Positions 3,338-63,999 of a DNA stretch of 64,000 bases are shown one piece after another. Location of the stretch: positions 45,486-109,485 of IMG/VR virus record IMGVR_UViG_3300021471_000006, one strand, 5' to 3'. Within the stretch, counting starts at the first letter, position 1, and the number at the start of each line of letters is the position of its first letter. Source of the stretch: a virus. The translations under genes and the position numbers were made by a program. The notes beneath the pieces are model-generated. The model had not been told where the DNA came from, searched no databases, and worked only from the letters and a program-made list of their open reading frames with translations.

Positions 3338-3625
3338 TTATCGTTTTTTTGGGCGAATTATCCAAATGCCATCAACAGTCGTTGGTGCAGAGCCACTTTT
3401 ATTTAATCTAACTTCTGTATATGTTGGATATTGTGCTCTAAAACCAGCCCTTATACATCTTAATCGTTCTTTACTGTCTATTGCGTGTCTTGTAAACTGA
3501 TGTGGATTAAAGCAGATAACGTGATGACTTTCCACATATTGCTTTAGTCTTGTCAGTTTAGCTATTCGTTCATCTAATATATCCAATACAACGGACTTAT
3601 CTAATGTTCTCATTGCCATCACCAA
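3338..3625 (-). CDS. Hypothetical protein
   Basis: ORF with reverse TATA box at 3646-3659 and downstream T-tract. Confidence 0.6.
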   Translation of the reverse strand: MVMAMRTLDKSVVLDILDERIAKLTRLKQYVESHHVICFNPHQFTRHAIDSKERLRCIRAGFRAQYPTYTEVRLNKSGSAPTTVDGIWIIRPKKR

Positions 3626-3763
3626 TATAATATAATATTTTCCTATTTATAAACTTTTTGTTTTTTTATTTAGGCGATTTCTGGACAGAAAACTTTGTTT
3701 GAGTCGGCGTCTTTCTGGCCTGCCCTGGGAGAGGGACTTTTGGCTAAATAAAAAAAATATGGG

Positions 3764-3934
3764 TCACATATTACAATAGGCGGCTATGATAGCTTCTATC
3801 TCTAGAGCCGTATTGTAATATTTTAGACAGTCTTTATCGCACCAGTGGCGCCCAGAACTATCTGTATAAGGCTCTGTAAGTTCTGTCTTACACCAGCCGC
3901 ATTTAATTACTTTCTCAGGCGTTAATAGTTCCAT
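3764..3934 (-). CDS. Small Zn-finger protein (56 aa, not in ORF track)
   Basis: MELLTPEKVIKCGWC...WCDKDC; GGTGA RBS; reverse TATA at 3967-3980; T-tract after stop. Confidence 0.65.
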   Translation of the reverse strand: MELLTPEKVIKCGWCKTELTEPYTDSSGRHWCDKDCLKYYNTALEIEAIIAAYCNM

Positions 3935-3966
3935 TTTTATCACCAGCTTATATAAATACTTTAAGC

Positions 3967-4020
3967 TTTATAAATGTTTCGAAAATTTGACGGCTTAAAA
4001 GGAATGGAAAATTTTATAAA
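3967..4020. promoter_or_regulatory. Divergent BRE-TATA promoter pair
   Basis: TTTATAAATGTTTC (minus, 3967-3980) and GAAAATTTTATAAA (plus, 4007-4020). Confidence 0.65.
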
Positions 4021-4154
4021 TGGTAATTGCTTAATCTCTCTTGTAGTTAAATAAATTAGTTTAACTATGGCGGTGGAAATTTTACCCCCCAAAACACAAC
4101 AAAGTAATTCTTTCCACCGTCTTAAACTCTCATAAACTTATGGAGGTGAGAACA

Positions 4155-13635: not shown

Positions 13636-13841
13636 AATTTAAGGTTGGAGAGATAGTAAGACAAATAAAAAATCTATCGAAAAGTGAAGACCCGTTATGT
13701 GAGATAGTGGAAATAAGAAAAATCGGAAAAAAAACAGAAATAGTGCATAGGCACTTAAATAAGGATTTTACATCTAGTGCCCTTGAAGACAACTTTGAAA
13801 AAGTTGAAATTGATAATTGGAGGAAGATTATTGACGTTTGA
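13632..13841 (+). CDS. SH3/KOW-like small protein with W-tag
   Basis: MKFKVGEIVR; ends EIDNWRKIIDV. Confidence 0.75.
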   Translation: MKFKVGEIVRQIKNLSKSEDPLCEIVEIRKIGKKTEIVHRHLNKDFTSSALEDNFEKVEIDNWRKIIDV

Positions 13842-13879
13842 AACGATTATTCGGAAAGAGGACTGTTCCCAAGAAAAGC

Positions 13880-13893
13880 AAAACATTTATAAA
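13880..13893 (+). promoter_or_regulatory. BRE-TATA promoter upstream of the ubiquitin-like locus
   Basis: AAAACATTTATAAA, same consensus as other promoters in the window. Confidence 0.6.
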
Positions 13894-13957
13894 TAAAACT
13901 GATTTACTAGAGAATAACAAAAAATTAACTTATGGTAACAGCAAAACGGAGAATAAA

Positions 13958-14716
13958 ATGTTTAAGAAATTTGAATTAGCTAGACAAATGTATAATCAGT
14001 ATTGGGGCTATCTGACACCGTTCCAAAAACGAAACGTTGTACAGGCATTAAATAATAATAAAACTATTATTAAACCAAGAAAAACAGTTTCGTCGGTTAA
14101 AAAAACCAAATTAGCTGATAAATATAAGGCAATAAGAAAGAAAGATTGTCCTAATAAAATTCGTGTAAATAATTTAATTGCAGATTTAATAAAAAAGGAC
14201 TCACGCTTAAAAAAGGGAACTGCTCTAATTTTAGACGCAGAAACTACCCTTACTTTAAGAACTCTGTTAGCTATCGGGTATCCCAAGTATTTGATAGATA
14301 GTGTCAATTATATTGAGGACACCTATAAACAAATCAAGGCACATCACCGTCAAACCTATCATATGCTATTAGGCGACTATATAGATATGATAGGTAAGAT
14401 ACCCGAAAATAAACATTCAGTTACGGTTGCGTTTCCAGATTATTGTTGTAGTATTAAAGGAAATAAAGATATGAAACCAAGAGAGGACTTAATCAAGTTT
14501 TTCACTTATAAGTTATTAGCTAAACCTAGTTTATTAGCCATAACTTTCTCTTGGAGAGCAGGGAAGAAAGAGGTGAAAGAAGGGCATTTCGAGTCCCTAA
14601 CTAAATTAGATAATTTAATAACTCAAACTGCGAAAGATAACGGCTATCTAGCAGTTATTAAAGACGGACTATCTTATAAAGGTAGTATGTTTTTTAGAAT
14701 ATATAAAATACATTAG
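13958..14716 (+). CDS. Possible SAM-dependent methyltransferase-fold protein with N-terminal LARQMY module
   Basis: GGAG RBS at ATG 13958; ALILDA...FPDYC...LAITFS Rossmann-like pattern (weak). Confidence 0.45.
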   Translation: MFKKFELARQMYNQYWGYLTPFQKRNVVQALNNNKTIIKPRKTVSSVKKTKLADKYKAIRKKDCPNKIRVNNLIADLIKKDSRLKKGTALILDAETTLTLRTLLAIGYPKYLIDSVNYIEDTYKQIKAHHRQTYHMLLGDYIDMIGKIPENKHSVTVAFPDYCCSIKGNKDMKPREDLIKFFTYKLLAKPSLLAITFSWRAGKKEVKEGHFESLTKLDNLITQTAKDNGYLAVIKDGLSYKGSMFFRIYKIH

Positions 14717-14827
14717 TTATGTTTCTGGCACGAAAAGGTAAGCCCAGTTAGTAGGACGAAGAATAGTATCTCGTGTTTTTAACGAGAGAAGGTAGTAGTC
14801 TATTTGATACGTGTTTGGTACGGATCC

Positions 14828-14861
14828 GGGGGACATTTTAGTCCCCCTTCATTTTTATTTT
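14828..14861 (+). terminator. GC hairpin plus T-tract
   Basis: GGGGGAC-ATTTTA-GTCCCCC then T-rich run. Confidence 0.65.
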
Positions 14862-14929
14862 CCCTTATCGGGGATTAGGGAAGTTAAAATATGTCCCCAC
14901 AAAAAAACAGTATTGGAGGTGTCCGCAAA

Positions 14930-15274
14930 ATGGCTACAAAAGGACAATTAGCTAGACAGATGTATGGTAAAGCACTATACGAGTTGTCAGCAGGAGAGAA
15001 AGCCGCAGTAACAAGAGCATTTAACTCACAAGGAGCTTCTAGCTCAAGTGCCACAGTTACAGCTGAAGTGGGAAGAATTGGTGTCAATGGCACCCAAAGA
15101 TGTATTTTATCCGAGGGTGAAACAGTTGGCGAGTTAATCGAGCAGTCAGGCTTCAAACTTGACAGCAAGAAAGAAGGAGTTGTTGCTCAATCAACCGGAA
15201 AGAGGGTTTTACTTTCTGAACCTGTTGTACACGGGGAAACCTATGTTATAACACCAGAAATAAAATCAGCTTAA
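14930..15274 (+). CDS. Ubiquitin-like (beta-grasp) modifier with N-terminal LARQMY module
   Basis: GETVGELIEQSG...EPVVHGETYVITPEIKSA ThiS/MoaD/Ub-like pattern; directly upstream of E2/JAB/E1 genes. Confidence 0.75.
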   Translation: MATKGQLARQMYGKALYELSAGEKAAVTRAFNSQGASSSSATVTAEVGRIGVNGTQRCILSEGETVGELIEQSGFKLDSKKEGVVAQSTGKRVLLSEPVVHGETYVITPEIKSA

Positions 15275-15337
15275 ATAAATTTTTTGGGGCATTTGCCCCA
15301 CTTTTCATATTCATTATACAATAAACGGAGGATTAAA

Positions 15338-16885
15338 ATGATAAAAACATTTGATAAATTTGTATTGGAAAGCTTTATAAGGGAAACTATGAAAGCTTAT
15401 ACTTATAAATGGATAGACGACAACACCCTAGAATTTTATAAAAAAGACAAGGTTGTTGGAAAATATAAATTAGATAATACACGCATAGAAGCAAAAGGAA
15501 AAGTAATAGAGAAATTTCTTAAAAACTTAATTAAACAAAAAGAAGAGGCAGATAAGAACAAACTAACAAAACAGAAAGCCGCAAAAAGTGTATTCAAAAC
15601 AATTTATAACGATTTGAATAGCTACAACGGACTTGCAGATAATTATATTATGTTTGACCTTATGAATAAACAGTTTAAAAAAATAGGGGTTGAAGAGGTC
15701 ATAATTAGAAAAACAATAAATTCAAATAATCTAGCGCCTAAGAAAATAACTTTAAATATGGACGGAAATCCACAAGAAAGAATAAGCGTTTACAATGATG
15801 AAGGATATTATACTAGATTAAGGGATTTTCTGTTTGCAGAATACGAACACGACGTTAAGGAAAAATCTAGTTTTTATGTTTCTAACAAGCCGAAGTGGCT
15901 TTTTCAAGCCGAGAACGAGAAAATAAAAGATATTAAACTCCGAAATATGTTAGTTGGAAGATATTATCTGGAAAGAAACTTTATACATTTGTACTTTAAT
16001 CCGTTTTTAGTTAAAAAAATTCTTCCATTAGGGTCCGTTATGCCAAAGATATTTATAGAGTTATTTAAGGAGTTACAAAAACTAAATATTAAGGTACGAG
16101 ATACCTCAAGTTTCTCTAAAAAAATGTTTGTTGCAACATTTTTAGAAGGTTCCAGAAAAAGACTAAAAAGACTAATTCAGGATAAAAAAGATAATATAAA
16201 TAGAATAAGTGATAGAGAAACCCAAATTAGATTAGCCTTAGAAAGGCTTGCAGAGATAGAAGAAGAAACCGCTTTTATTGAAAAGAATATTCGTATGAAA
16301 GGAAAAGGAATGCTTAAGGAACTAGACACAGTTAGAAAGCTAAAATTCATAAAAGATTTAAAAATGGGCACAGATTACATAGAATTAAAATATGTTCCCA
16401 CAACTTTAACTTTCTCTGATTTTAAACGTTCAGATAGGGGAAAGGGATATGGGAAGAGAACAATTTATCTAGGAGAGATAACTGCAAGAATAACTCCCGG
16501 AAGTTTCACTATTAAAAACTCAATTAATATAGACAGAGGCGGACACGCACATTCTCACGCAGACGGAAATCCCGGAAGTCCCTGTTTTGGTAGTGGGGGT
16601 GGAAGAAATAAAATATATGAACTGCTTTCCCAAAACAAGTTTACCGAACTTGCCAAGATACTTTGGTTTTGGATTAAAACCCACAGAAACGAAGGTGCAT
16701 ATGTGAAGATGTGGACTATTTATGACTATATGTTGAGCAACGGTTATCCTGTTTGGGACGAAAAGGGCAACAGAATTAAAATTAATGACGCAAAGAGGCT
16801 GAAATCCAAAGAGCAAAGAAAGTTAGATAAGTCCTCAAAATATGCGACTAATATAAAGAAATTCGCCGATTTCAAATTGGTGTAA
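15338..16885 (+). CDS. Prokaryotic E2-like (UBC-fold) protein with long N-terminal and coiled-coil region
   Basis: C-terminal HAHSH...GSPCFG resembling the E2 HPH/N...C[LF]G catalytic region; operon context. Confidence 0.6.
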   Translation: MIKTFDKFVLESFIRETMKAYTYKWIDDNTLEFYKKDKVVGKYKLDNTRIEAKGKVIEKFLKNLIKQKEEADKNKLTKQKAAKSVFKTIYNDLNSYNGLADNYIMFDLMNKQFKKIGVEEVIIRKTINSNNLAPKKITLNMDGNPQERISVYNDEGYYTRLRDFLFAEYEHDVKEKSSFYVSNKPKWLFQAENEKIKDIKLRNMLVGRYYLERNFIHLYFNPFLVKKILPLGSVMPKIFIELFKELQKLNIKVRDTSSFSKKMFVATFLEGSRKRLKRLIQDKKDNINRISDRETQIRLALERLAEIEEETAFIEKNIRMKGKGMLKELDTVRKLKFIKDLKMGTDYIELKYVPTTLTFSDFKRSDRGKGYGKRTIYLGEITARITPGSFTIKNSINIDRGGHAHSHADGNPGSPCFGSGGGRNKIYELLSQNKFTELAKILWFWIKTHRNEGAYVKMWTIYDYMLSNGYPVWDEKGNRIKINDAKRLKSKEQRKLDKSSKYATNIKKFADFKLV

Positions 16886-16900
16886 ATGGAGGGAATTTAA

Positions 16901-18322
16901 ATGGAATATAAAGCAAAAGTAGTTTTGTCCTATGATGTATATAGGAGAATAAAGTGGCTAACTCACAATTTCGATAAGGAGATAGCTGCGGTGGGGACCG
17001 GAAAAATCCGAAAAAATGTCAATGACGAGGAGAAACATTTTTACATAAGTAAATTATATTTTCCAAATCAGAAAGTTACCGGAGCAAGTGTCCACATTAC
17101 ACAAGAAATGTGGGGAGATATTATCAAGAAAGTTCCTAAAGAAGAGTGGGGAGATATATGCTTCTATTGGCATAAACATCCCGGAAGTGCAAGTCATTCA
17201 TCCGTAGATGAAGAAGATACATTTGAAACTTTTATGTCTCCAGAGGCGGGACGTAAGTGGTTTGTTTTCTTGCAAACGGCGGCAAAAGGAGAAGATAGTA
17301 TGGATATAGAATTAAGAATAGAATTGAGAGAGCCCATTAGAGCAACTCTTTTAGGTAAATCTGTTACTAAATTAACTTATGAGATAACAAAAGAAGAACT
17401 TAAACTTAGGGACAAGATAGAGAAACTACAGGAGAAAATTGAGGAATTAAGAAACAAACCAAATGAAAGACTAAAGAAGGAGTTGGAAGAAATAATAGAG
17501 AATTGTGTAGAGAAGGACGATTTCTGGAATAAAGATAATTCATATAGAAGAGGCAACTATTATAATTCTTCAAGAGGTCCGCCACCGGAAGACTCCGATA
17601 TTATAGCATTAAGATTACTCTTTGAGAAAGGAGAACAAAATTCAGAGTATATGAACAACGATACTCTTATGGGAGTTCCAACTAGAGATGAAGAAAAGGT
17701 TAGTATAGAATTTAAGAGTGGAGGAGTTTTAATAAAGGCTGGAAAGATGTTTCGTTCAGTTTTACAAAACGCCCTTAAACCGAAAGAAGGTAAATTGGCT
17801 AGTGTAGTCAAGAGGTTTACAATAATAGAGCCAAAAGAAAGTAAAATATTTTACACATACAAACTACAACCAATGAAAAAGGCGTATAAAGTCTTAAAGA
17901 CAGTAATGAAAAGGCTATTTATAGCTTATAATGACGCCCTATTAGCTAAATGGGAGAATGAGGGAAGACTGGAGACCCCAAAGAGTGAGCCCCAGAAAAT
18001 AGAAACGAAAAAGAATTTTAAGAAGCCTTTAACTTTAACTCTAAAGAACACACCATTAATAAATGATGTTCTTTCCGAATTAGAAATGGTTGCGGACTTG
18101 GATTGGACAAGTAAAAGATATGCTATCGCATATCAGAGAGGAGAAAAGAAGAATAATAAGTTTGTTCTGGGGTCAGTCTTTAATACCGAACATACTTTGT
18201 TAATCTCGGGCGACGATATTGTTTCAATTACTAATGCTATAATAGCCGAGCTCTCCGAACAAAAAAATTATTCAGGTGATAAAGTTGAAGAAAAACCAAA
18301 AGCAAGAGCAAAAGCTTCCTGA
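16901..18322 (+). CDS. JAB/MPN+ metallopeptidase (deubiquitinase-like)
   Basis: N-terminal E (KEIAA) plus WHKHPG...S..D JAMM motif. Confidence 0.85.
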   Translation: MEYKAKVVLSYDVYRRIKWLTHNFDKEIAAVGTGKIRKNVNDEEKHFYISKLYFPNQKVTGASVHITQEMWGDIIKKVPKEEWGDICFYWHKHPGSASHSSVDEEDTFETFMSPEAGRKWFVFLQTAAKGEDSMDIELRIELREPIRATLLGKSVTKLTYEITKEELKLRDKIEKLQEKIEELRNKPNERLKKELEEIIENCVEKDDFWNKDNSYRRGNYYNSSRGPPPEDSDIIALRLLFEKGEQNSEYMNNDTLMGVPTRDEEKVSIEFKSGGVLIKAGKMFRSVLQNALKPKEGKLASVVKRFTIIEPKESKIFYTYKLQPMKKAYKVLKTVMKRLFIAYNDALLAKWENEGRLETPKSEPQKIETKKNFKKPLTLTLKNTPLINDVLSELEMVADLDWTSKRYAIAYQRGEKKNNKFVLGSVFNTEHTLLISGDDIVSITNAIIAELSEQKNYSGDKVEEKPKARAKAS

Positions 18323-19208
18323 AACAAACGAACAAAACGAATTAAATCTCTCAAGGCAAAGTAAACTAATTCCAAAAGATAAAATAACCCAATATACATT
18401 AAAAGTATTTGGTGTAGGAAGTATTGGTAGTCATTTTGTCAAAACGGCTGCAAAGACAGGATTTACTAATATTGAAGTCTTTGATACCGATATTGTGGAA
18501 GAAGAAAACATTGCCGCCCAAGCATTTGACTTTAGACATATTGGAATGAAGAAAGTTGAGGCTATGAAAGAGATAGTTCTTGAAGGAGCGGGAGTTGAGA
18601 TAATAGCAACTCACGGAACAGTAACAAAAGAAACAGATATAGTTCCGGAACCAAATACTATTTATTGTTGTTTCTTTGATAGTATGGAGGGAAGAAAAAT
18701 AGTATTTGAAAAAGTCAAAGATTTTCCTGTAGTCTTCGTGGACGGAAGAATAGGAAGATATGATATGCGACATTATCTAGTAGATTGTTCCGACAAAAAC
18801 GAGGTACAAATATATGGAGATACACTAAACGTTAAAGGCGTTTCAGATTTGGCTTGTGGAGAGAAAGCAAGTGCGCCCATAAATGTCCAGATAGCAGGAA
18901 TGATAGTAATGAATATAGTGAACTTTATTTCGGGTAAAGATTACACTAAAAGATTTATCGGCAATGCAGCCACTCCTAAAACATCAATCCATATTTTAGA
19001 AATTAAGGAGAAAAAAGAAGAACTATTATATGACGTATCTCAAGAAATAGAGGAAGAAATCTCATTAGAACTAGATGATGATGAATTCCCTTTAGCAGAA
19101 CTAGTAGCTGATAATACCGATGAAGTTAAAGAGGATGAAGATAATGAAACAGAAGACGAAGAAGAGGCTAATGAAATCGAAGAAGAACCTATCGAAGAAG
19201 AACATTGA
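18276..19208 (+). CDS. ThiF/E1-like activating enzyme with acidic tail
   Basis: SRQ, VFGVGSIGS, FDTDIVEEENI, IGMKKV, FDS...R, candidate catalytic Cys in LACGEK. Confidence 0.9.
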   Translation: MIKLKKNQKQEQKLPETNEQNELNLSRQSKLIPKDKITQYTLKVFGVGSIGSHFVKTAAKTGFTNIEVFDTDIVEEENIAAQAFDFRHIGMKKVEAMKEIVLEGAGVEIIATHGTVTKETDIVPEPNTIYCCFFDSMEGRKIVFEKVKDFPVVFVDGRIGRYDMRHYLVDCSDKNEVQIYGDTLNVKGVSDLACGEKASAPINVQIAGMIVMNIVNFISGKDYTKRFIGNAATPKTSIHILEIKEKKEELLYDVSQEIEEEISLELDDDEFPLAELVADNTDEVKEDEDNETEDEEEANEIEEEPIEEEH

Positions 19209-36452: not shown

Positions 36453-39400
36453 ATGATTAACGGAGATAATGGAGTAGACAAGATATTTTTTAAGCTAAAG
36501 GATAGCTTTATAGAGAATTACAAAGACAAACAACCAGAATGGGGATATGGTGGTCTGGGCTATACGGTTTACAAACGTACATATGCTCGTCGCTTGAATG
36601 GTTCTACAGAAGAGTTCTGGCAAACTCTTAGAAGAGTAGTAGAGGGAGTTTTTACTATTCAAAAAAGACACTGTATTAGGAATTTAGTTCCTTGGTCAGA
36701 GCTTAAAGCCCAAAATTCGGCACAGAAAATGTTTAAGCTTATGTGGGAATTTAAATTCTTACCGCCGGGAAGAGGATTGTGGATGATGGGAACAGACTAT
36801 GTATACAAACGAGGCGGAATGTCATTAAATAATTGTGGATTTGTAAGCACGCAGAACATTACTACTAACTTTGCTGAGCCATTCTGTTTTCTAATGGACG
36901 CTTGTATGCTTGGAGTGGGAGTTGGAGCAGATACAAAAGGAGCCGGAAAGATGACTGTTAGAGAGCCAAAGATTTCAAATGAAGCATTTCTCATTCCAGA
37001 CACAAGAGAAGGGTGGGTAGAGGCTCTACGAAAAGTACTAAATGCTTTCTCTGGAGAAGGAGAGCTGCCAGCTAGTTTTGATAGTTCTTTAATTAGACCA
37101 TATGGAGAGCCCATAAATGGTTTTGGAGGAACAGCCTCTGGACCGGGACCACTGCTTGAGATGTTAGCAGATGTAGAGAAAGTACTCAGAAAAAGAATTG
37201 GAGAAAAGATAACATCAACTGATATTGTAGATATTTTTAATTTAATAGGGAGATGTGTAGTTGCCGGAAATGTAAGGAGAACTGCAGAAATAATGTTTGG
37301 TGAACAAGATGATGAAGAGTTTCTTAATCTTAAAAATCCAGAGATGTTTAAAACTGAACTTCTGCACCATCGTTGGGCCAGCAACAATTCCATTTTTGCA
37401 AAAGTTGGGATGGACTACTCAAAAGTTGCAGAACTTACTGCAAAGAATGGAGAACCCGGATATGAATGGTTAGACAATGCTAGAGCATTTTCAAGGATGG
37501 GAAAAGAACCAGATAATAAAGATTATAGAGCCGGTGGAGGCAATCCATGTTTGGAACAAACGCTTGAACCATATGAACTTTGCTGCGTAACTGGTGATAC
37601 CAGAATTCAAACACGGTCAGGTTTACCGAAAATTAAAGATGTCGTCGGCAAAACAGTTGAAGTGTGGAATGGCGTATGCTGGTCAAAGGTAAAACCATTT
37701 AAAGCCGGTAAAAACAAAAAAATACTGAGGGTATACATATCAGATGGTTCATACTTGGATTGTGATAAAAAGCACGAATTTTTAGTAAGAGAAAGAACAA
37801 AGAGAAGATACGTTAAAAAATATGCTAAAAATTTAAAGCCCGGAGACACGTTACCAGAATATTCTTTAGAACCAGACATGGGGGGAAAACACGTTGAAAA
37901 CGCATATGAATATGGTTTATTTGCCGGAGATGGATGTGTAGATAAAAATAATCCAATATTATGTATTGGAGGAGATAAAAACAAGTTAAAGAACAAAATT
38001 AAAGGAAAGTGGTATAAACCAAGAACCAACGAATATAATAAACCAATGTACAGAGTCTCTATGAAAAATATTCTAGATTTAGAAATGTGTAGACAATTAA
38101 GACAAAAAGAATTACCAGAGGATATTTTTAGTTGGGATTCCAATTCAATAATGGAGTTTATAGCGGGTTACATTGATTCTGATGGAAGTGTTGGAAAATA
38201 TGGTAATACACATAATTATAGAATATTTGGCCTAGAACAAAAGATGCGAGACCTTCAAATTTTGTGTAGAAGAATAGGTATAAACCATGCTACAGTTAAC
38301 TTAATGTCAAAAAAAGGGACTAAAACTAATTTTGGTACTAGAAACGAAGATTTGTGGTTCTTATATATACCAACATATGAATGTGCGGGAATTCCAACAA
38401 GATTAAAAATAGCAACTAAATTTGGAAGTGGTTTAAAAAATAATAACGCGCATGTTAATGGAAGGCAAATTTCTTATAAACGAAGACAAAAGATTGTTGG
38501 TATAACTGAAAAATTACAAAGAGAAGACACATATTGTTTTACAGAGCCAATGTATAATATGGGCGTGTTTGGTAACGTTTTAACATTTCAATGTCTTGTT
38601 GAAACTTTTCCAGTTAAGCACAATACACTTGAAGAGTGGATAGAGACACTTAAATACGCATATTTATATGCGAAAACTGTCACACTTATTCCTACACATA
38701 ATAAGCTTACAAATGCTGTTATGTTAAGAAATAGGAGAATAGGTTGTTCAATATCTGGAATTACTCAAGCTTTCAAGAAGTTTGGCCGACGACATTTTTT
38801 TGAAAAAATAGACGAGGGCTATAAGAGAATCCAGGATTGGGACAAGACTTTTTCAGACTGGATGTGTATTCCCAGGAGCATCAAGATGACTTCTATAAAG
38901 CCGTCTGGCACCGTTTCGCTGTTGCCTGGTGTAACTCCTGGAATACATTATCCAATATCTGAATACTATATACGCAATGTGAGATTTATGAAAGGCAGTA
39001 AACTGCTTGAGAAACTAGAGAAAGCCGGATATCTAGTAGAGAAAGATAAATATACTGATAATACTTATGTAGTGAGCTTTCCAATAAAAGAAGAATACTT
39101 CGAAAGAAGTGTCAACGACGTTTCAATGTGGGAGCAATTAGAGAATGTAGCGCAAATTCAAGAGCATTGGGCAGACAATCAGGTAAGTGTCACTGTTAGC
39201 TTTAAAGATTACGAAGCTAAAGATATTAAATATGCTTTAGAACTTTACGAAACTAGACTGAAAGGTGTGAGTTTTTTGCCTATTAAAGACCATGGATATG
39301 AGCAAGCGCCTTATATACCCATAACAGAGAAGGAGTTTAAAAACTTAAGACGAAAAATAAAAGATAAAAATTTATTAGGCAAGATAACTAACTCAATACA

Positions 39401-39461
39401 CGAAATAGATGATAAGTTTTGTGATAGTACAACTTGTGAAATTGAGGTGGAATTAACATGA
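36453..39461 (+). CDS. nrdJ: Class II (AdoCbl-dependent, RTPR-like) ribonucleotide reductase containing an intein
   Basis: PPGRGLW, LNNC, VVAGNVRRTA, NPCLEQ, KPSGTVS, C-terminal CDSTTC. Confidence 0.95.
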   Translation: MINGDNGVDKIFFKLKDSFIENYKDKQPEWGYGGLGYTVYKRTYARRLNGSTEEFWQTLRRVVEGVFTIQKRHCIRNLVPWSELKAQNSAQKMFKLMWEFKFLPPGRGLWMMGTDYVYKRGGMSLNNCGFVSTQNITTNFAEPFCFLMDACMLGVGVGADTKGAGKMTVREPKISNEAFLIPDTREGWVEALRKVLNAFSGEGELPASFDSSLIRPYGEPINGFGGTASGPGPLLEMLADVEKVLRKRIGEKITSTDIVDIFNLIGRCVVAGNVRRTAEIMFGEQDDEEFLNLKNPEMFKTELLHHRWASNNSIFAKVGMDYSKVAELTAKNGEPGYEWLDNARAFSRMGKEPDNKDYRAGGGNPCLEQTLEPYELCCVTGDTRIQTRSGLPKIKDVVGKTVEVWNGVCWSKVKPFKAGKNKKILRVYISDGSYLDCDKKHEFLVRERTKRRYVKKYAKNLKPGDTLPEYSLEPDMGGKHVENAYEYGLFAGDGCVDKNNPILCIGGDKNKLKNKIKGKWYKPRTNEYNKPMYRVSMKNILDLEMCRQLRQKELPEDIFSWDSNSIMEFIAGYIDSDGSVGKYGNTHNYRIFGLEQKMRDLQILCRRIGINHATVNLMSKKGTKTNFGTRNEDLWFLYIPTYECAGIPTRLKIATKFGSGLKNNNAHVNGRQISYKRRQKIVGITEKLQREDTYCFTEPMYNMGVFGNVLTFQCLVETFPVKHNTLEEWIETLKYAYLYAKTVTLIPTHNKLTNAVMLRNRRIGCSISGITQAFKKFGRRHFFEKIDEGYKRIQDWDKTFSDWMCIPRSIKMTSIKPSGTVSLLPGVTPGIHYPISEYYIRNVRFMKGSKLLEKLEKAGYLVEKDKYTDNTYVVSFPIKEEYFERSVNDVSMWEQLENVAQIQEHWADNQVSVTVSFKDYEAKDIKYALELYETRLKGVSFLPIKDHGYEQAPYIPITEKEFKNLRRKIKDKNLLGKITNSIHEIDDKFCDSTTCEIEVELT
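37584..38591 (+). mobile_element. Intein (336 aa) with LAGLIDADG endonuclease, ending in Gln
   Basis: Starts CVTGDT; block B CDKKHEF; GLFAGDG and FIAGYIDSDG; ends VLTFQ before extein Cys; removal restores ELCCLVE. Confidence 0.92.
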
Positions 39462-61074: not shown

Positions 61075-63999
61075 TTAACTACAATAGTCGCTCGTATTCA
61101 CACAATCTGTACATAATGAACTTATTAAAAATACTGGCTCATAATAAGCTAAACTGCTGGGGTCACACGAAGTTAAATTTACAAACCAATAAAGTTCTAT
61201 TTGTTCATCTCTAAATAACTGGTCTTCTATCTCAGTACAAGTATCTGATACACTAACTCTACTAGGAACATACGGAATGTTCCACCAAATTGCCTCCTCA
61301 TATAGTTTTCCAGAATGGGCATCGGAAGAACCATCATAAACTGTTTCCCACCCAGTAGAGTTTTTACAATACCAGGCTCCATAAGAGTTTGATACTGGAG
61401 TATTGGATATCTCTCTCAATTCTATTGGGTCTTGTGCAAAACAAGAACTTGAAATTGTCCAGTTGTTTCTGTCAGATGGATACCCCCCTCTTTTAACCTC
61501 CCATTTAGCTCCAGTAGCTCTAGACGGTTTACTATAGTTTAAATAAATATAGCTTGGGTTGCCACCAACTTCGTCCATAGAGTAAGTGCTCCAAATTCCA
61601 TCATAACCATTTGAACATGGATATGACCCATCGAAAGTTCCTGAACAGACAGTGCTGTTTGCATTCTCCTGATAAGTCCAGTCTACACTATCTGTCGAAT
61701 ATTTATCATATGCTATATTAAGACATGCCGGAACACTTGAATTCATTCTTATATTTATCTTTGCATTTTGATTAGGTCTTTGTAACATTGTAATAGTATG
61801 GAATGGTACTCCGGTTTTATTATCTTGACCAAATGGTTCTAAATTCTTTGAATTAACAGTTGTTGGAAAAATCCAAAAATCGTCAACATTGGGTGGTAAT
61901 GTTACATTGAATGGACTATATTTTGTATATATATATGTATTTACATTAGATGGAGTAATATTTATCTCTATTGTATCATTTCCATAGTGATTCAATTCCA
62001 TATTATCTATAGTCACACTTTGGTCACCAGTACCAGACCAAGATATGTTAATATCTATCTGGCAAGGATCCTTATCGCACTCGCTTGTAAATTTACTTAT
62101 ATTTAAATCTCGTTTATGGGCGTTAATGTTAAATGCTGTTATATTTATACTAAAATTTAATAATCCTGTAGAATCTGAATATATTCTAAAAGGCACCGGA
62201 CAGCTATCTACATAACTAAAATCACAATTATTATCTATATATATATTATATAGGCTCTTCCCAGTATCTTCATTGGTAGTGTTTTCAGATATGTCATATT
62301 TTCTCTCCGTATCAATTTGAGTATTATTAATCCAATCTAATATGCCATCATCTCCTATATCTATAGATATGTTGATAGGAAAAGAACTGGTAAAGCCTTT
62401 TATTATTGAAGTATTTATTATAGGAGTTATTTGCATATCACCAGTTTTAAGTCTCCATTTTAATTTTATTTTATTTCCAGTACTACTGAAATTATGCTGG
62501 TATTCGATATTATCATATATTATATTTTCCCAATTACTTCCATCGTCGGCACTAATATATGTGTCAGTTTCTCCATCTGTTCTATTGTCTAGTGTCACTT
62601 TAACTGTAACATTTGTAATTGTGTAGTTTGTCTCCAACAGTGTTTTGGTAATAGTGTCTTGCCACTCATCTGTTATAAATGCGTCAAATTCTACTTGTCC
62701 AGTTTCGTTGGGTTCAACTGTTCCGTGTAATATTACTTTAGCGTTGGGCTCAATACTATATCCGCCAGAAGAATATCCATATACATTTACATTAAGTACA
62801 ACAAATTTTGAACTATTAACATAATCTGCTCTATTTGTATCATTTATTTTAAAATTTGAGTTAAGCGAATCGCAGCTCTCATCATTATCTGTATTATCAT
62901 AACAAGAATCTATAATATCATATGTGTTGGTATTCCAATTATATACTGTTATATTTGAGTTAGCTATATCTCCGTCGTCATATATTTCAGCACTTACACG
63001 ATAGTTTATAGTCATATTTCTAGAGGAAGTTATATTAGGTATTTCCAAAGTATAGTATCCTTGGAATGTCTCTCCCGGGCTCATATCACCATATATACGT
63101 ATTCTTGTTTCACTATTAAAATCTTCATCAAAAGAATACCAAAAACGGTCCGTATATTTACCATCCGGTGCATCAGAATACAATGAATCAATATATACGC
63201 CAGGACATGTGGTAGTTTGTGAACAAAAGTCATACTTATGGAACCATGTAGTGGGCTCCATTTCTAGTACTTCTGATTGAACATTCCAATTTGACTCTGT
63301 GTTGTCAGAATCTTTATATAGAGTATTTGAAAAATCTATAGTAATATTGTCTTCTAATGTTTCACCAGACAGTGTAAGTGTAGTATAAAAATTAAAATCT
63401 TCCCCAATAGGGAAATTTACATATCTTAAAACTGAGGAGTCTTGTGTATAATACGGCAATTTCTCTGAAAATAAGCCGTTAGACAGTCTCTTCAATTTTA
63501 ATTCGTTGTTTCCCAAAAAACCAGGTAACATATAATCTATCACACCATCGTTTCCCACATCTAAAGTTACATTTTCTGGTTCGTTTTCTCCAGAAAGGGT
63601 TAAAGACATATTAATAAACTTCGAATAGTTGCTAGCTTCTATTGAAACAATTGACCCCTTGGAAGTAATAGTTTTGTTGTCAGTCAAATCATTAAATTTC
63701 CAGATAAATGGTATTACGCTAAAATTATAATAAAACGGTGCATTGGCACAATAATAGTTTTTCTTGTTATTAATGTCAAGACAAGTATATGTTGTTCCAT
63801 TTACATAAAGTTCTGCATTTGTCTCTACTTCGTATGTTCTGTTTTCAGATAAATTGTTTAAAAAGATTGTGGACAGATATTTCTCGTCTAATGTATATAT
63901 TGTATAACTAGTAATTTCAGGACTTATTCCTCCCGTATCATTAATTCGAATTTTATAATATAAGGGACTTCCACTTAAATTAACTACATTTGTCCCGTC
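61075..63999 (-). CDS. Large sequon-rich surface/extracellular protein (5' end outside the window)
   Basis: Frame stays open to the window edge; about 30 N-x-S/T sequons, paired Cys, two D[VI]G.DG..D[YW] motifs. Confidence 0.7.
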   Translation of the reverse strand, partial: DGTNVVNLSGSPLYYKIRINDTGGISPEITSYTIYTLDEKYLSTIFLNNLSENRTYEVETNAELYVNGTTYTCLDINNKKNYYCANAPFYYNFSVIPFIWKFNDLTDNKTITSKGSIVSIEASNYSKFINMSLTLSGENEPENVTLDVGNDGVIDYMLPGFLGNNELKLKRLSNGLFSEKLPYYTQDSSVLRYVNFPIGEDFNFYTTLTLSGETLEDNITIDFSNTLYKDSDNTESNWNVQSEVLEMEPTTWFHKYDFCSQTTTCPGVYIDSLYSDAPDGKYTDRFWYSFDEDFNSETRIRIYGDMSPGETFQGYYTLEIPNITSSRNMTINYRVSAEIYDDGDIANSNITVYNWNTNTYDIIDSCYDNTDNDESCDSLNSNFKINDTNRADYVNSSKFVVLNVNVYGYSSGGYSIEPNAKVILHGTVEPNETGQVEFDAFITDEWQDTITKTLLETNYTITNVTVKVTLDNRTDGETDTYISADDGSNWENIIYDNIEYQHNFSSTGNKIKLKWRLKTGDMQITPIINTSIIKGFTSSFPINISIDIGDDGILDWINNTQIDTERKYDISENTTNEDTGKSLYNIYIDNNCDFSYVDSCPVPFRIYSDSTGLLNFSINITAFNINAHKRDLNISKFTSECDKDPCQIDINISWSGTGDQSVTIDNMELNHYGNDTIEINITPSNVNTYIYTKYSPFNVTLPPNVDDFWIFPTTVNSKNLEPFGQDNKTGVPFHTITMLQRPNQNAKINIRMNSSVPACLNIAYDKYSTDSVDWTYQENANSTVCSGTFDGSYPCSNGYDGIWSTYSMDEVGGNPSYIYLNYSKPSRATGAKWEVKRGGYPSDRNNWTISSSCFAQDPIELREISNTPVSNSYGAWYCKNSTGWETVYDGSSDAHSGKLYEEAIWWNIPYVPSRVSVSDTCTEIEDQLFRDEQIELYWFVNLTSCDPSSLAYYEPVFLISSLCTDCVNTSDYCS

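Follow-up and report, generated by a model that had tools for sequence, protein, structure and literature searches.

Why do an enzyme and a small ubiquitin-like protein (Ubl), encoded side by side by a virus, begin with similar amino acid sequences? The question is raised by bases 45486-109485 of the IMG/VR record IMGVR_UViG_3300021471_000006 (a single contig of 109,485 bp; 34% G+C), a stretch of 64,000 nucleotides that is called the window below. Here the genes for a 252-aa protein with a methyltransferase fold ("the enzyme") and for a 114-aa Ubl are + strand neighbours, separated by a 213-nt spacer. An earlier reading of the sequence alone (the original prediction) had proposed that the two proteins share an N-terminal module marked by LARQMY, a docking or oligomerisation element linking the enzyme to a conjugation system. 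Our analysis points to such a module as a constant part of the Ubl family, and as an addition to the enzyme in what appear to be only two lineages. The features concerned are as follows.

13958..14716 (stop included), + strand: gene for the 252-aa methyltransferase-fold enzyme (open reading frame (ORF), GGAG before the ATG, AlphaFold2 model, fold matches)
13958..14059, + strand: enzyme copy of the shared module, residues 1-34, predicted helices 2-18 and 21-33 (BLASTP, shuffles, profile, AlphaFold2)
13974..13993, + strand: 20-nt DNA island encoding (E)LARQMY in the enzyme, 19/20 identical to 14946-14965
14060..14128, + strand: Lys-rich enzyme linker, residues 35-57, predicted disordered (no secondary structure; low model confidence)
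14129..14713, + strand: Rossmann methyltransferase-fold core, residues 58-252, with an invariant D161-Y162 in a 'DYCC' motif
14930..15274 (stop included), + strand: gene for the 114-aa Ubl
14930..15034, + strand: Ubl copy of the module, residues 1-35, predicted helices 4-12 and 21-35 (present in all full-length orthologues; predicted local distance difference test (pLDDT) score 85-92)
14946..14965, + strand: 20-nt DNA island encoding (Q)LARQMY in the Ubl
15053..15271, + strand: Ubl beta-grasp domain, residues 42-114, ending KSA (Foldseek and VIA-align matches to RnfH, SAMP1, MoaD and SUMO)

Homology of the two N-termini

The two N-termini read as the original prediction gave them, and their likeness extends over the first 34 residues of each protein. 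BLASTP aligns residues 1-34 of the enzyme and the Ubl without gaps, with 13/34 identical and 19/34 positive positions (E 4e-5 for this single comparison). The pair has an ungapped BLOSUM62 score of 49. The best of 28,358 other 34-mers from the genome's ORFs scored 28, and none of 200,000 shuffles came up to 49 (shuffle maximum 37). When a profile of the Ubl module was built without either window sequence, the enzyme N-terminus ranked second genome-wide (E 0.05); its 14.5 bits were reached by none of 20,000 composition-matched shuffles, the best of which scored 14.3. The enzyme module also scores 50 against the foreign Ubl modules P0011 and P0006, through matches such as YLTP, and 47 against the resident Ubl. 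Because foreign modules score as well, the similarity is family-wide and does not rest on LARQMY alone, and the equal scores speak against recent copying from the resident Ubl within the genome.

Of the module's residues, the enzyme copy retains the three that are invariant (K4, K24 and N32) as well as A8, Y12 and L19. Both copies, which are the only two in the genome, are predicted to form a helix hairpin followed by a disordered linker, with pLDDT of 57-58 over enzyme residues 34-57 (below 50 at 36-40) and of about 64 over Ubl residues 36-41. A flexible linker between module and main domain had been proposed for both proteins, and the low-confidence stretches in the models agree with this. 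With the BLASTP value and both sets of shuffles in its favour, the shared segment itself is upheld as real; its likeness in the two proteins is true homology, and the segment is a private module of two predicted helices, about 34 aa long.

The original prediction also drew attention to a match at the DNA level. The match is there: the 18-mer TTAGCTAGACARATGTAT occurs exactly twice in the window and in the genome, does not occur in relatives, and belongs to an island in which 19/20 nt are identical, while identity outside the island is 40%. As independent evidence, however, it adds little. TTA, GCT, AGA, CAA and TAT are each among the two commonest codons for their residues in the genome, and the probability of sharing at least four of the five codons, given identical residues and genome codon usage, is about 0.16, so the DNA match follows from identical residues and codon bias. 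The island was also considered as a regulatory word and rejected, given its two genome copies, its absence from relatives and the codon-bias explanation. The regions upstream of the enzyme and Ubl starts are unrelated, and a duplication including a promoter or ribosome-binding site was rejected on that account.

The likely start codons bear on whether the enzyme extension is translated. The enzyme ORF spans 13838..14716, and GGAG lies 7 nt upstream of ATG 13958. Since the sole other in-frame ATG, GTG or TTG before the core, ATG 13988, is inside the module and has no GGAG, ATG 13958 is most likely the enzyme start and the extension is most likely translated. The Ubl start, ATG 14930, lies behind GGAGGTG and agrees with the starts of its orthologues.

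The module in the Ubl family

Searches for Ubl relatives returned 18 homologues of 78-125 aa in metagenomes, and then 25 more metagenomic loci and three viral-contig loci. The module heads every full-length Ubl orthologue (about 30 were found), after which come a linker that varies in length and composition and is Arg-rich in many Ubls, and a beta-grasp domain ending in EIKSA plus 0-1 residue. Its consensus is TKdqiAneMYGdDFeyLsaGEKAAVTRaFNaQ, of which GEKAAVTRAFN is nearly invariant. Across 20 aligned modules K4, K24 and N32 are invariant, and A8, Y12, L19, G22, E23, A25, T28 and Q34 are nearly so. Among orthologues the module is at least as conserved as the beta-grasp domain, and the divergent Ubl of locus L029 keeps it despite a different C-terminus (DSSL). 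The AlphaFold2 model of the window Ubl (pLDDT 86) has a helix at 4-12, a short helical turn at 16-18, a helix at 21-35, a linker of lower confidence and the beta-grasp domain at 42-114.

Searches for relatives of the module in other proteins gave little. The module matches no Pfam family, and no helix-turn-helix (HTH), SAP or helix-hairpin-helix (HhH) Pfam model was found in the 18 Ubls at E up to 10. Fold searches with the full Ubl are dominated by the beta-grasp domain; no solved Ubl structure spans the module, all VIA-align matches beginning at residue 32 or later. A profile search of the PDB with the module gave ribosomal protein bS20 as its sole match, at chance level (E 0.4). An ESM Atlas search with residues 1-38 gave no usable match, the structure matches being generic helical hairpins. 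Scanning 185,579 prokaryote genomes for the module motif brought up no relative, and tblastn found no relative of the enzyme or the Ubl in phage GenBank records. A word-indexed search for the module in longer proteins returned nothing and is uninformative, as it missed the window enzyme too.

The methyltransferase-fold enzyme and its family

The claim that the upstream protein has a methyltransferase fold is supported by structure comparison. Its AlphaFold2 model, built from 99 sequences (pLDDT 89.6), consists of a helix hairpin, an unstructured Lys-rich stretch and a Rossmann alpha/beta core; the hairpin is predicted at pLDDT 66-81, though none of the aligned homologues extends over it. Foldseek gives E <= 0.001 for at least its best 500 matches, with methyltransferases throughout among the matches listed, and VIA-align gives Z scores of 14-16.6 to RlmI-like, RsmD-like, Trm1 and HemK2 enzymes.

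Nevertheless, the motifs expected of a class-I methyltransferase that uses S-adenosylmethionine (SAM) are altered. In place of the Gly-rich motif I (GxGxG) the window enzyme has ILDAETTLT and the family consensus is LDxxxxxT, with no conserved Gly. Where an acidic residue would end strand 2 and contact the SAM ribose, a nearly invariant Asn117 follows the strand at 113-116; this weakens membership of the SAM-dependent class, although Asn could still form the hydrogen bond and SAM might yet be bound. The invariant D161 and Y162 of the DYCC motif, after the strand at 155-159, resemble motif IV, (D/N)PP(F/Y), but are not identical to it. Because of the missing Gly-rich loop, the Asn after strand 2 and the DYCC motif, the modelled enzyme is called methyltransferase-fold only, and not a proven SAM-dependent methyltransferase.

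A profile search with the core of about 188 aa found 798 family representatives (E up to 0.001). The family has no Pfam model, and the enzyme itself has no match in NCBIfam, PHROGs or PADLOC either. The same core forms the C-terminus of the 700-1,550-aa proteins P0064, P0069-P0072, P0115 and P0118, which carry superfamily 2 (SF2) helicase, helicase-associated (HA) and APOBEC-like domains. Other members elsewhere carry chromo domains (five shorter members), AT-hooks or HTHs. By reading, HTH-like segments are N-terminal in the Ubl-linked members L007, L015 and L018 and C-terminal in P0036, P0039, P0053 and P0059, and the N-termini of the family vary widely. The enzyme family thus reaches well beyond these viruses, and its fusions to HTH, AT-hook, chromo and helicase modules at either end suggest that the core is a unit directed to nucleic acid or chromatin that accepts add-on modules at both ends.

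Gene pairing and distribution of the module

Of 22 informative related loci, 19 have the enzyme gene immediately 5' of the Ubl gene, and in L029 it is three small genes away. At L022 3951-4472, the usual enzyme position, there is an HNH-like ORF (CxxC...HH...CxxCH) followed by 500 nt with no ORF, which suggests that the enzyme gene was replaced by a mobile endonuclease. At L011 3484-4153 two overlapping ORFs (3484..3738 and 3653..4153) together make up the enzyme homologue, divided by either a frameshift or a sequencing error.

The pairing of the genes is thus common; joint carriage of the module is not. Relatives had been expected to bear it on both Ubl and enzyme, and this expectation largely failed: about 30 Ubl orthologues have the module, whereas none of the 20 located related enzymes (the 19 directly upstream of a Ubl and that of L029) does, nor does the closest enzyme homologue, P0020 (51% identity, 210 aa). 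When 151 members of the enzyme family were scanned with the module profile, the module was found only on the window enzyme (N-terminal) and on P0035 (C-terminal). The latter, encoded on a Logan contig of 2,995 nt, has 257 aa and shares 45% identity with the window enzyme; its core spans residues 19-213 and its module 221-249 (31.9 bits, E 7e-10 among the 151 members). P0035 also has an N-terminal AT-hook (KRGRPKK), and its module keeps K4 and K24 and is too diverged from the near-invariant Ubl consensus to resemble an ordinary Ubl start. A scan of viral contigs with P0035 gave one weak partial match. With the module absent from the 20 located enzymes and P0020, joint carriage is rare and confined to particular lineages, and no general property of the system; by sequence, the module appears to have been joined to the enzyme in two lineages, at opposite ends.

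What the module may do

The explanation that we favour, with about an even chance of being right, is that the segment is a private docking or oligomerisation module of the Ubl which was also fused onto the neighbouring enzyme, and which recruits the enzyme to the Ubl's partner or targets. The module, which is constant at the N-terminus of the viral Ubls and joined to their beta-grasp domain through a linker that varies, would act as a protein-protein docking or oligomerisation handle. Its partner may be a conserved part of the Ubl machinery or a second module; the module's strong conservation in the Ubls argues that it meets a conserved partner. An enzyme bearing it would then be brought to that partner or to Ubl-tagged targets, and its nucleic-acid targeting would probably be supplied separately by the basic linker. 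Docking is favoured because the module is a small amphipathic hairpin on a flexible tether, and because K4, K24 and N32, which are polar and invariant, persist in the enzyme copy while other conserved positions change. It is favoured over DNA binding because the consensus is about neutral by count, with an acidic loop, and because the AT-hook of P0035 and the Lys-rich linker of the window enzyme are kept beside the module. The link between enzyme and Ubl has further support from the gene pair in 19/22 loci and from the second fusion at the other terminus in P0035. A shared docking module is plausible on these grounds, resting as it does on two fusions seen at the sequence level. More doubtful is the wider proposal that the module is a portable handle, whose bearer is docked to the Ubl machinery or to Ubl-tagged targets, or is itself modified with Ubl on K24, so that the enzyme would be coupled to protein conjugation.

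Several observations weigh against the docking explanation or against the shared module as such. When 352 ORFs were compared all against all by BLASTP, the pair came 10th (28.9 bits, E 0.007 per query), just 2-4 bits over the noise plateau, and 62 hexapeptides are common to different ORFs of this Lys/Glu-rich proteome. The genome-wide profile match is borderline, with E = 0.02-0.12 over four profile variants. The near-invariant G22, A25 and T28 of the Ubl's GEKAAVT are altered in the enzyme copy, whose second helix has F-Q-K-R...V against G22-E23-K24-A25...T28 in the Ubl, so that just K24 is kept and E23 has become Q; such changes would be as expected under relaxed or altered constraint. No located related enzyme carries the module, as described above, and P0035 may be a truncated or frameshifted enzyme-Ubl fusion.

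Some of these points lead to the suggestion that the enzyme copy is a neutral remnant, in which recombination or partial duplication placed the 5' end of the Ubl gene before the enzyme gene, where it was kept for its start codon and frame and has no function. A copy in one of about 21 Ubl-linked enzymes, the loss of G22, A25 and T28 from the second helix and the low profile score would all fit, as would the variable N-termini of the family and the fact that translation must start in or before the module (ATG 13988, with no GGAG, being the only other start). We still regard a remnant as fairly unlikely, since K4, K24 and N32 are all kept, the hairpin is still predicted over a segment with no aligned homologue, and P0035 provides a second fusion at the opposite terminus; moreover, the DNA outside the 20-nt island is saturated, and the copy is therefore old and has been kept intact. 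That the similarity is mere chance, between two unrelated helical N-termini in a Lys/Glu-rich proteome, is highly improbable. The common hexapeptides and the narrow margin over BLASTP noise speak for it, but neither the pair score nor the profile score was reached in shuffles (0/200,000 and 0/20,000), the genes are adjacent, the two segments line up from the start codon onwards, its boundaries are those of an independently defined conserved module, and P0035 shows a fusion within the enzyme family.

Two further explanations accept the module and give it another role. It might be a conjugation acceptor, with K24 or K4 receiving the Ubl C-terminus, so that Ubl chains would form via modules and a module-bearing enzyme would be a substrate. 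SUMO-2/3 chains form on a lysine in a flexible N-terminal extension, and K4 and K24 are invariant in the 20 Ubl modules and kept in both the window enzyme and P0035; even so, an acceptor motif would not require a conserved, folded hairpin of 34 aa with a hydrophobic core, and we hold this role to be unlikely. Alternatively, the module might be a minimal nucleic-acid-binding motif, HTH-, SAP- or helix-extension-helix (HeH)-like, that places Ubl and enzyme on DNA or RNA. It holds the position that HTH and AT-hook modules have in other family members, the Ubl model runs helix, short helix, turn, long helix, and many Ubl linkers are Arg-rich. Against this stand the lack of an HTH, SAP or HhH match in the Pfam search of the 18 Ubls, the net charge of about zero and the separate AT-hook or basic segments that P0035 and the window enzyme keep, and the sole hint is the chance-level bS20 match; nucleic-acid binding by the module is accordingly quite improbable.

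The Ubl domain and the conjugation cassette

That the downstream protein is a beta-grasp Ubl next to a ThiF-type E1 is supported by the fold matches and by the Pfam hit to the E1. Foldseek matched the Ubl to ubiquitin, SUMO, MoaD and TtuB, and VIA-align to RnfH (Z 9.7), SAMP1 (Z 9.2) and MoaD (Z 8.2), covering residues 32-114 or less; at the sequence level the beta-grasp domain has weak matches to SAMP2/PF1061. The Ubl has no C-terminal Gly-Gly: it ends in KSA, and 18/18 aligned sequences end in S-A plus 0-1 residue. The genes and signals around the Ubl gene are as follows.

14828..14847, + strand: terminator-like hairpin with T-run between the enzyme and Ubl genes
15285..15300, + strand: terminator-like hairpin directly 3' of the Ubl gene
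15284..16885, + strand: conserved protein of about 520 aa after the Ubl (ORF; syntenic orthologues in L001, L002, L022 and L029)
16901..18322, + strand: protein with an N-terminal JAMM-like HxH...S..D stretch (sequence; syntenic in relatives)
18276..19208, + strand: ThiF-family E1-like adenylyltransferase (Pfam ThiF E 8e-21; NCBIfam and PADLOC E1 matches)

The order 3' of the Ubl (the ~520-aa protein, the JAMM-like protein and the ThiF E1) is kept in L001, L002, L022 and L029. The ~520-aa protein has no match in Pfam, PHROGs, NCBIfam or PADLOC, the JAMM-like (JAB) protein has none in Pfam, and both it and the Ubl gave just weak, non-informative matches in PHROGs, NCBIfam and PADLOC; no PADLOC model except those for E1 matches the cassette. 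A 201-aa ORF in L002 (824-1429) looks like a free-standing paralogue of the ~520-aa protein's C-terminal domain, with an HPH...C.G stretch and WYW...GY...FP.WD..G.RI motifs. Small proteins ending in an (I/V)TNW(K/R)ERIK-type 'W-box' are abundant around the Ubl cassettes of L001 (4851-9271 and 14417-16234) and L002 (2102-3928 and 9722-12043).

The two G+C-rich hairpins with T-runs bracket the Ubl gene, so that it might be transcribed as a unit of its own, with attenuation before the ~520-aa gene. The spacer between enzyme and Ubl genes, 213 nt in the window, is about 62-66 nt in L001 and L002. It shows no structured RNA overall (z -1.4) and no Rfam match, and its DNA has no relatives in phage GenBank records.

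Comparison with known systems

Like the ThiS, MoaD and SAMP modifiers, the viral Ubl has a beta-grasp fold (in its C-terminal 73 residues), a ThiF-family E1 in its cassette and a JAMM-like protein alongside. Unlike them, it ends in KSA, to which orthologues may add one residue, and not in Gly-Gly, and it has a conserved N-terminal two-helix module on a flexible linker. The Atg8/LC3/GABARAP proteins offer a likeness, as these are Ubls with two extra N-terminal helices that mediate protein contacts; the Atg8 helices, however, pack onto the core with no flexible linker, and we saw no sequence relation between them and the viral module. Atg8 helices are not known to occur on a neighbouring enzyme.

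For the enzyme, the nearest group is that of RsmD, RlmI and Trm1, on which residues 52-252 superpose with Z 14-16.6 and a root-mean-square deviation of 2.2-3.2 A over 150-177 residues. The enzyme family resembles these nucleic-acid methyltransferases in its fusions elsewhere to nucleic-acid or chromatin modules, and differs from them in having LDAETT for motif I, Asn for the acidic residue and DYCC for (D/N)PP(F/Y). As for the cassette, the bacterial ubiquitination-like operons Bil and Bub (PMC11601596) likewise encode Ubl, E1 and peptidase on one strand, and the viral Ubl can be superposed, with Z of about 7.5, on BubA and also on a bacterial complex of E1, E2 and Ubl. The viral cassette differs from Bil and Bub in being virus-borne, in its unclassified partner of about 520 aa, in its methyltransferase-fold neighbour and in the N-terminal module of its Ubl.

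Genome setting

The window shows a strong strand bias of genes. Along with many small ORFs it has genes for an AEP primase, a family-B DNA polymerase and a class-II ribonucleotide reductase that bears a LAGLIDADG insert, from which we conclude that the contig is a virus genome. The reductase is of the B12-dependent class (window 36453-39461), and its LAGLIDADG-type insert, at about residues 567-615, is probably an intein. The contig's first 117 bases are repeated exactly at window 61783-61899 (genome 107268-107384), 2.1 kb from the contig end and within a long ORF of the minus strand; either an internal repeat or an artefact of assembly could account for this.

Significance

To our knowledge, virus-encoded cassettes of Ubl, E1 and JAB proteins have barely been characterised. 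Domain fusions are classic evidence for physical interaction. Appended modules on Ubls are already a known theme, as is the shuffling of domains among neighbours in an operon. E1-like genes have been described in Asgard viruses (bioRxiv 10.1101/2021.07.29.454249). The present analysis defines a Ubl family with an appended conserved two-helix module, a conserved pairing of this Ubl with an unclassified methyltransferase-fold family of about 800 representatives, and two fusions of the module onto the enzyme, at opposite termini. If the enzyme copy is a remnant only, the finding reduces to an ordinary domain-shuffling event. If the module is indeed a handle, the virus would couple a nucleic-acid methyltransferase-fold enzyme to protein conjugation, by way of a Ubl that carries its own adaptor domain. 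The binding partner of the module, be it the module itself or the machinery, would open up the function of the whole cassette.

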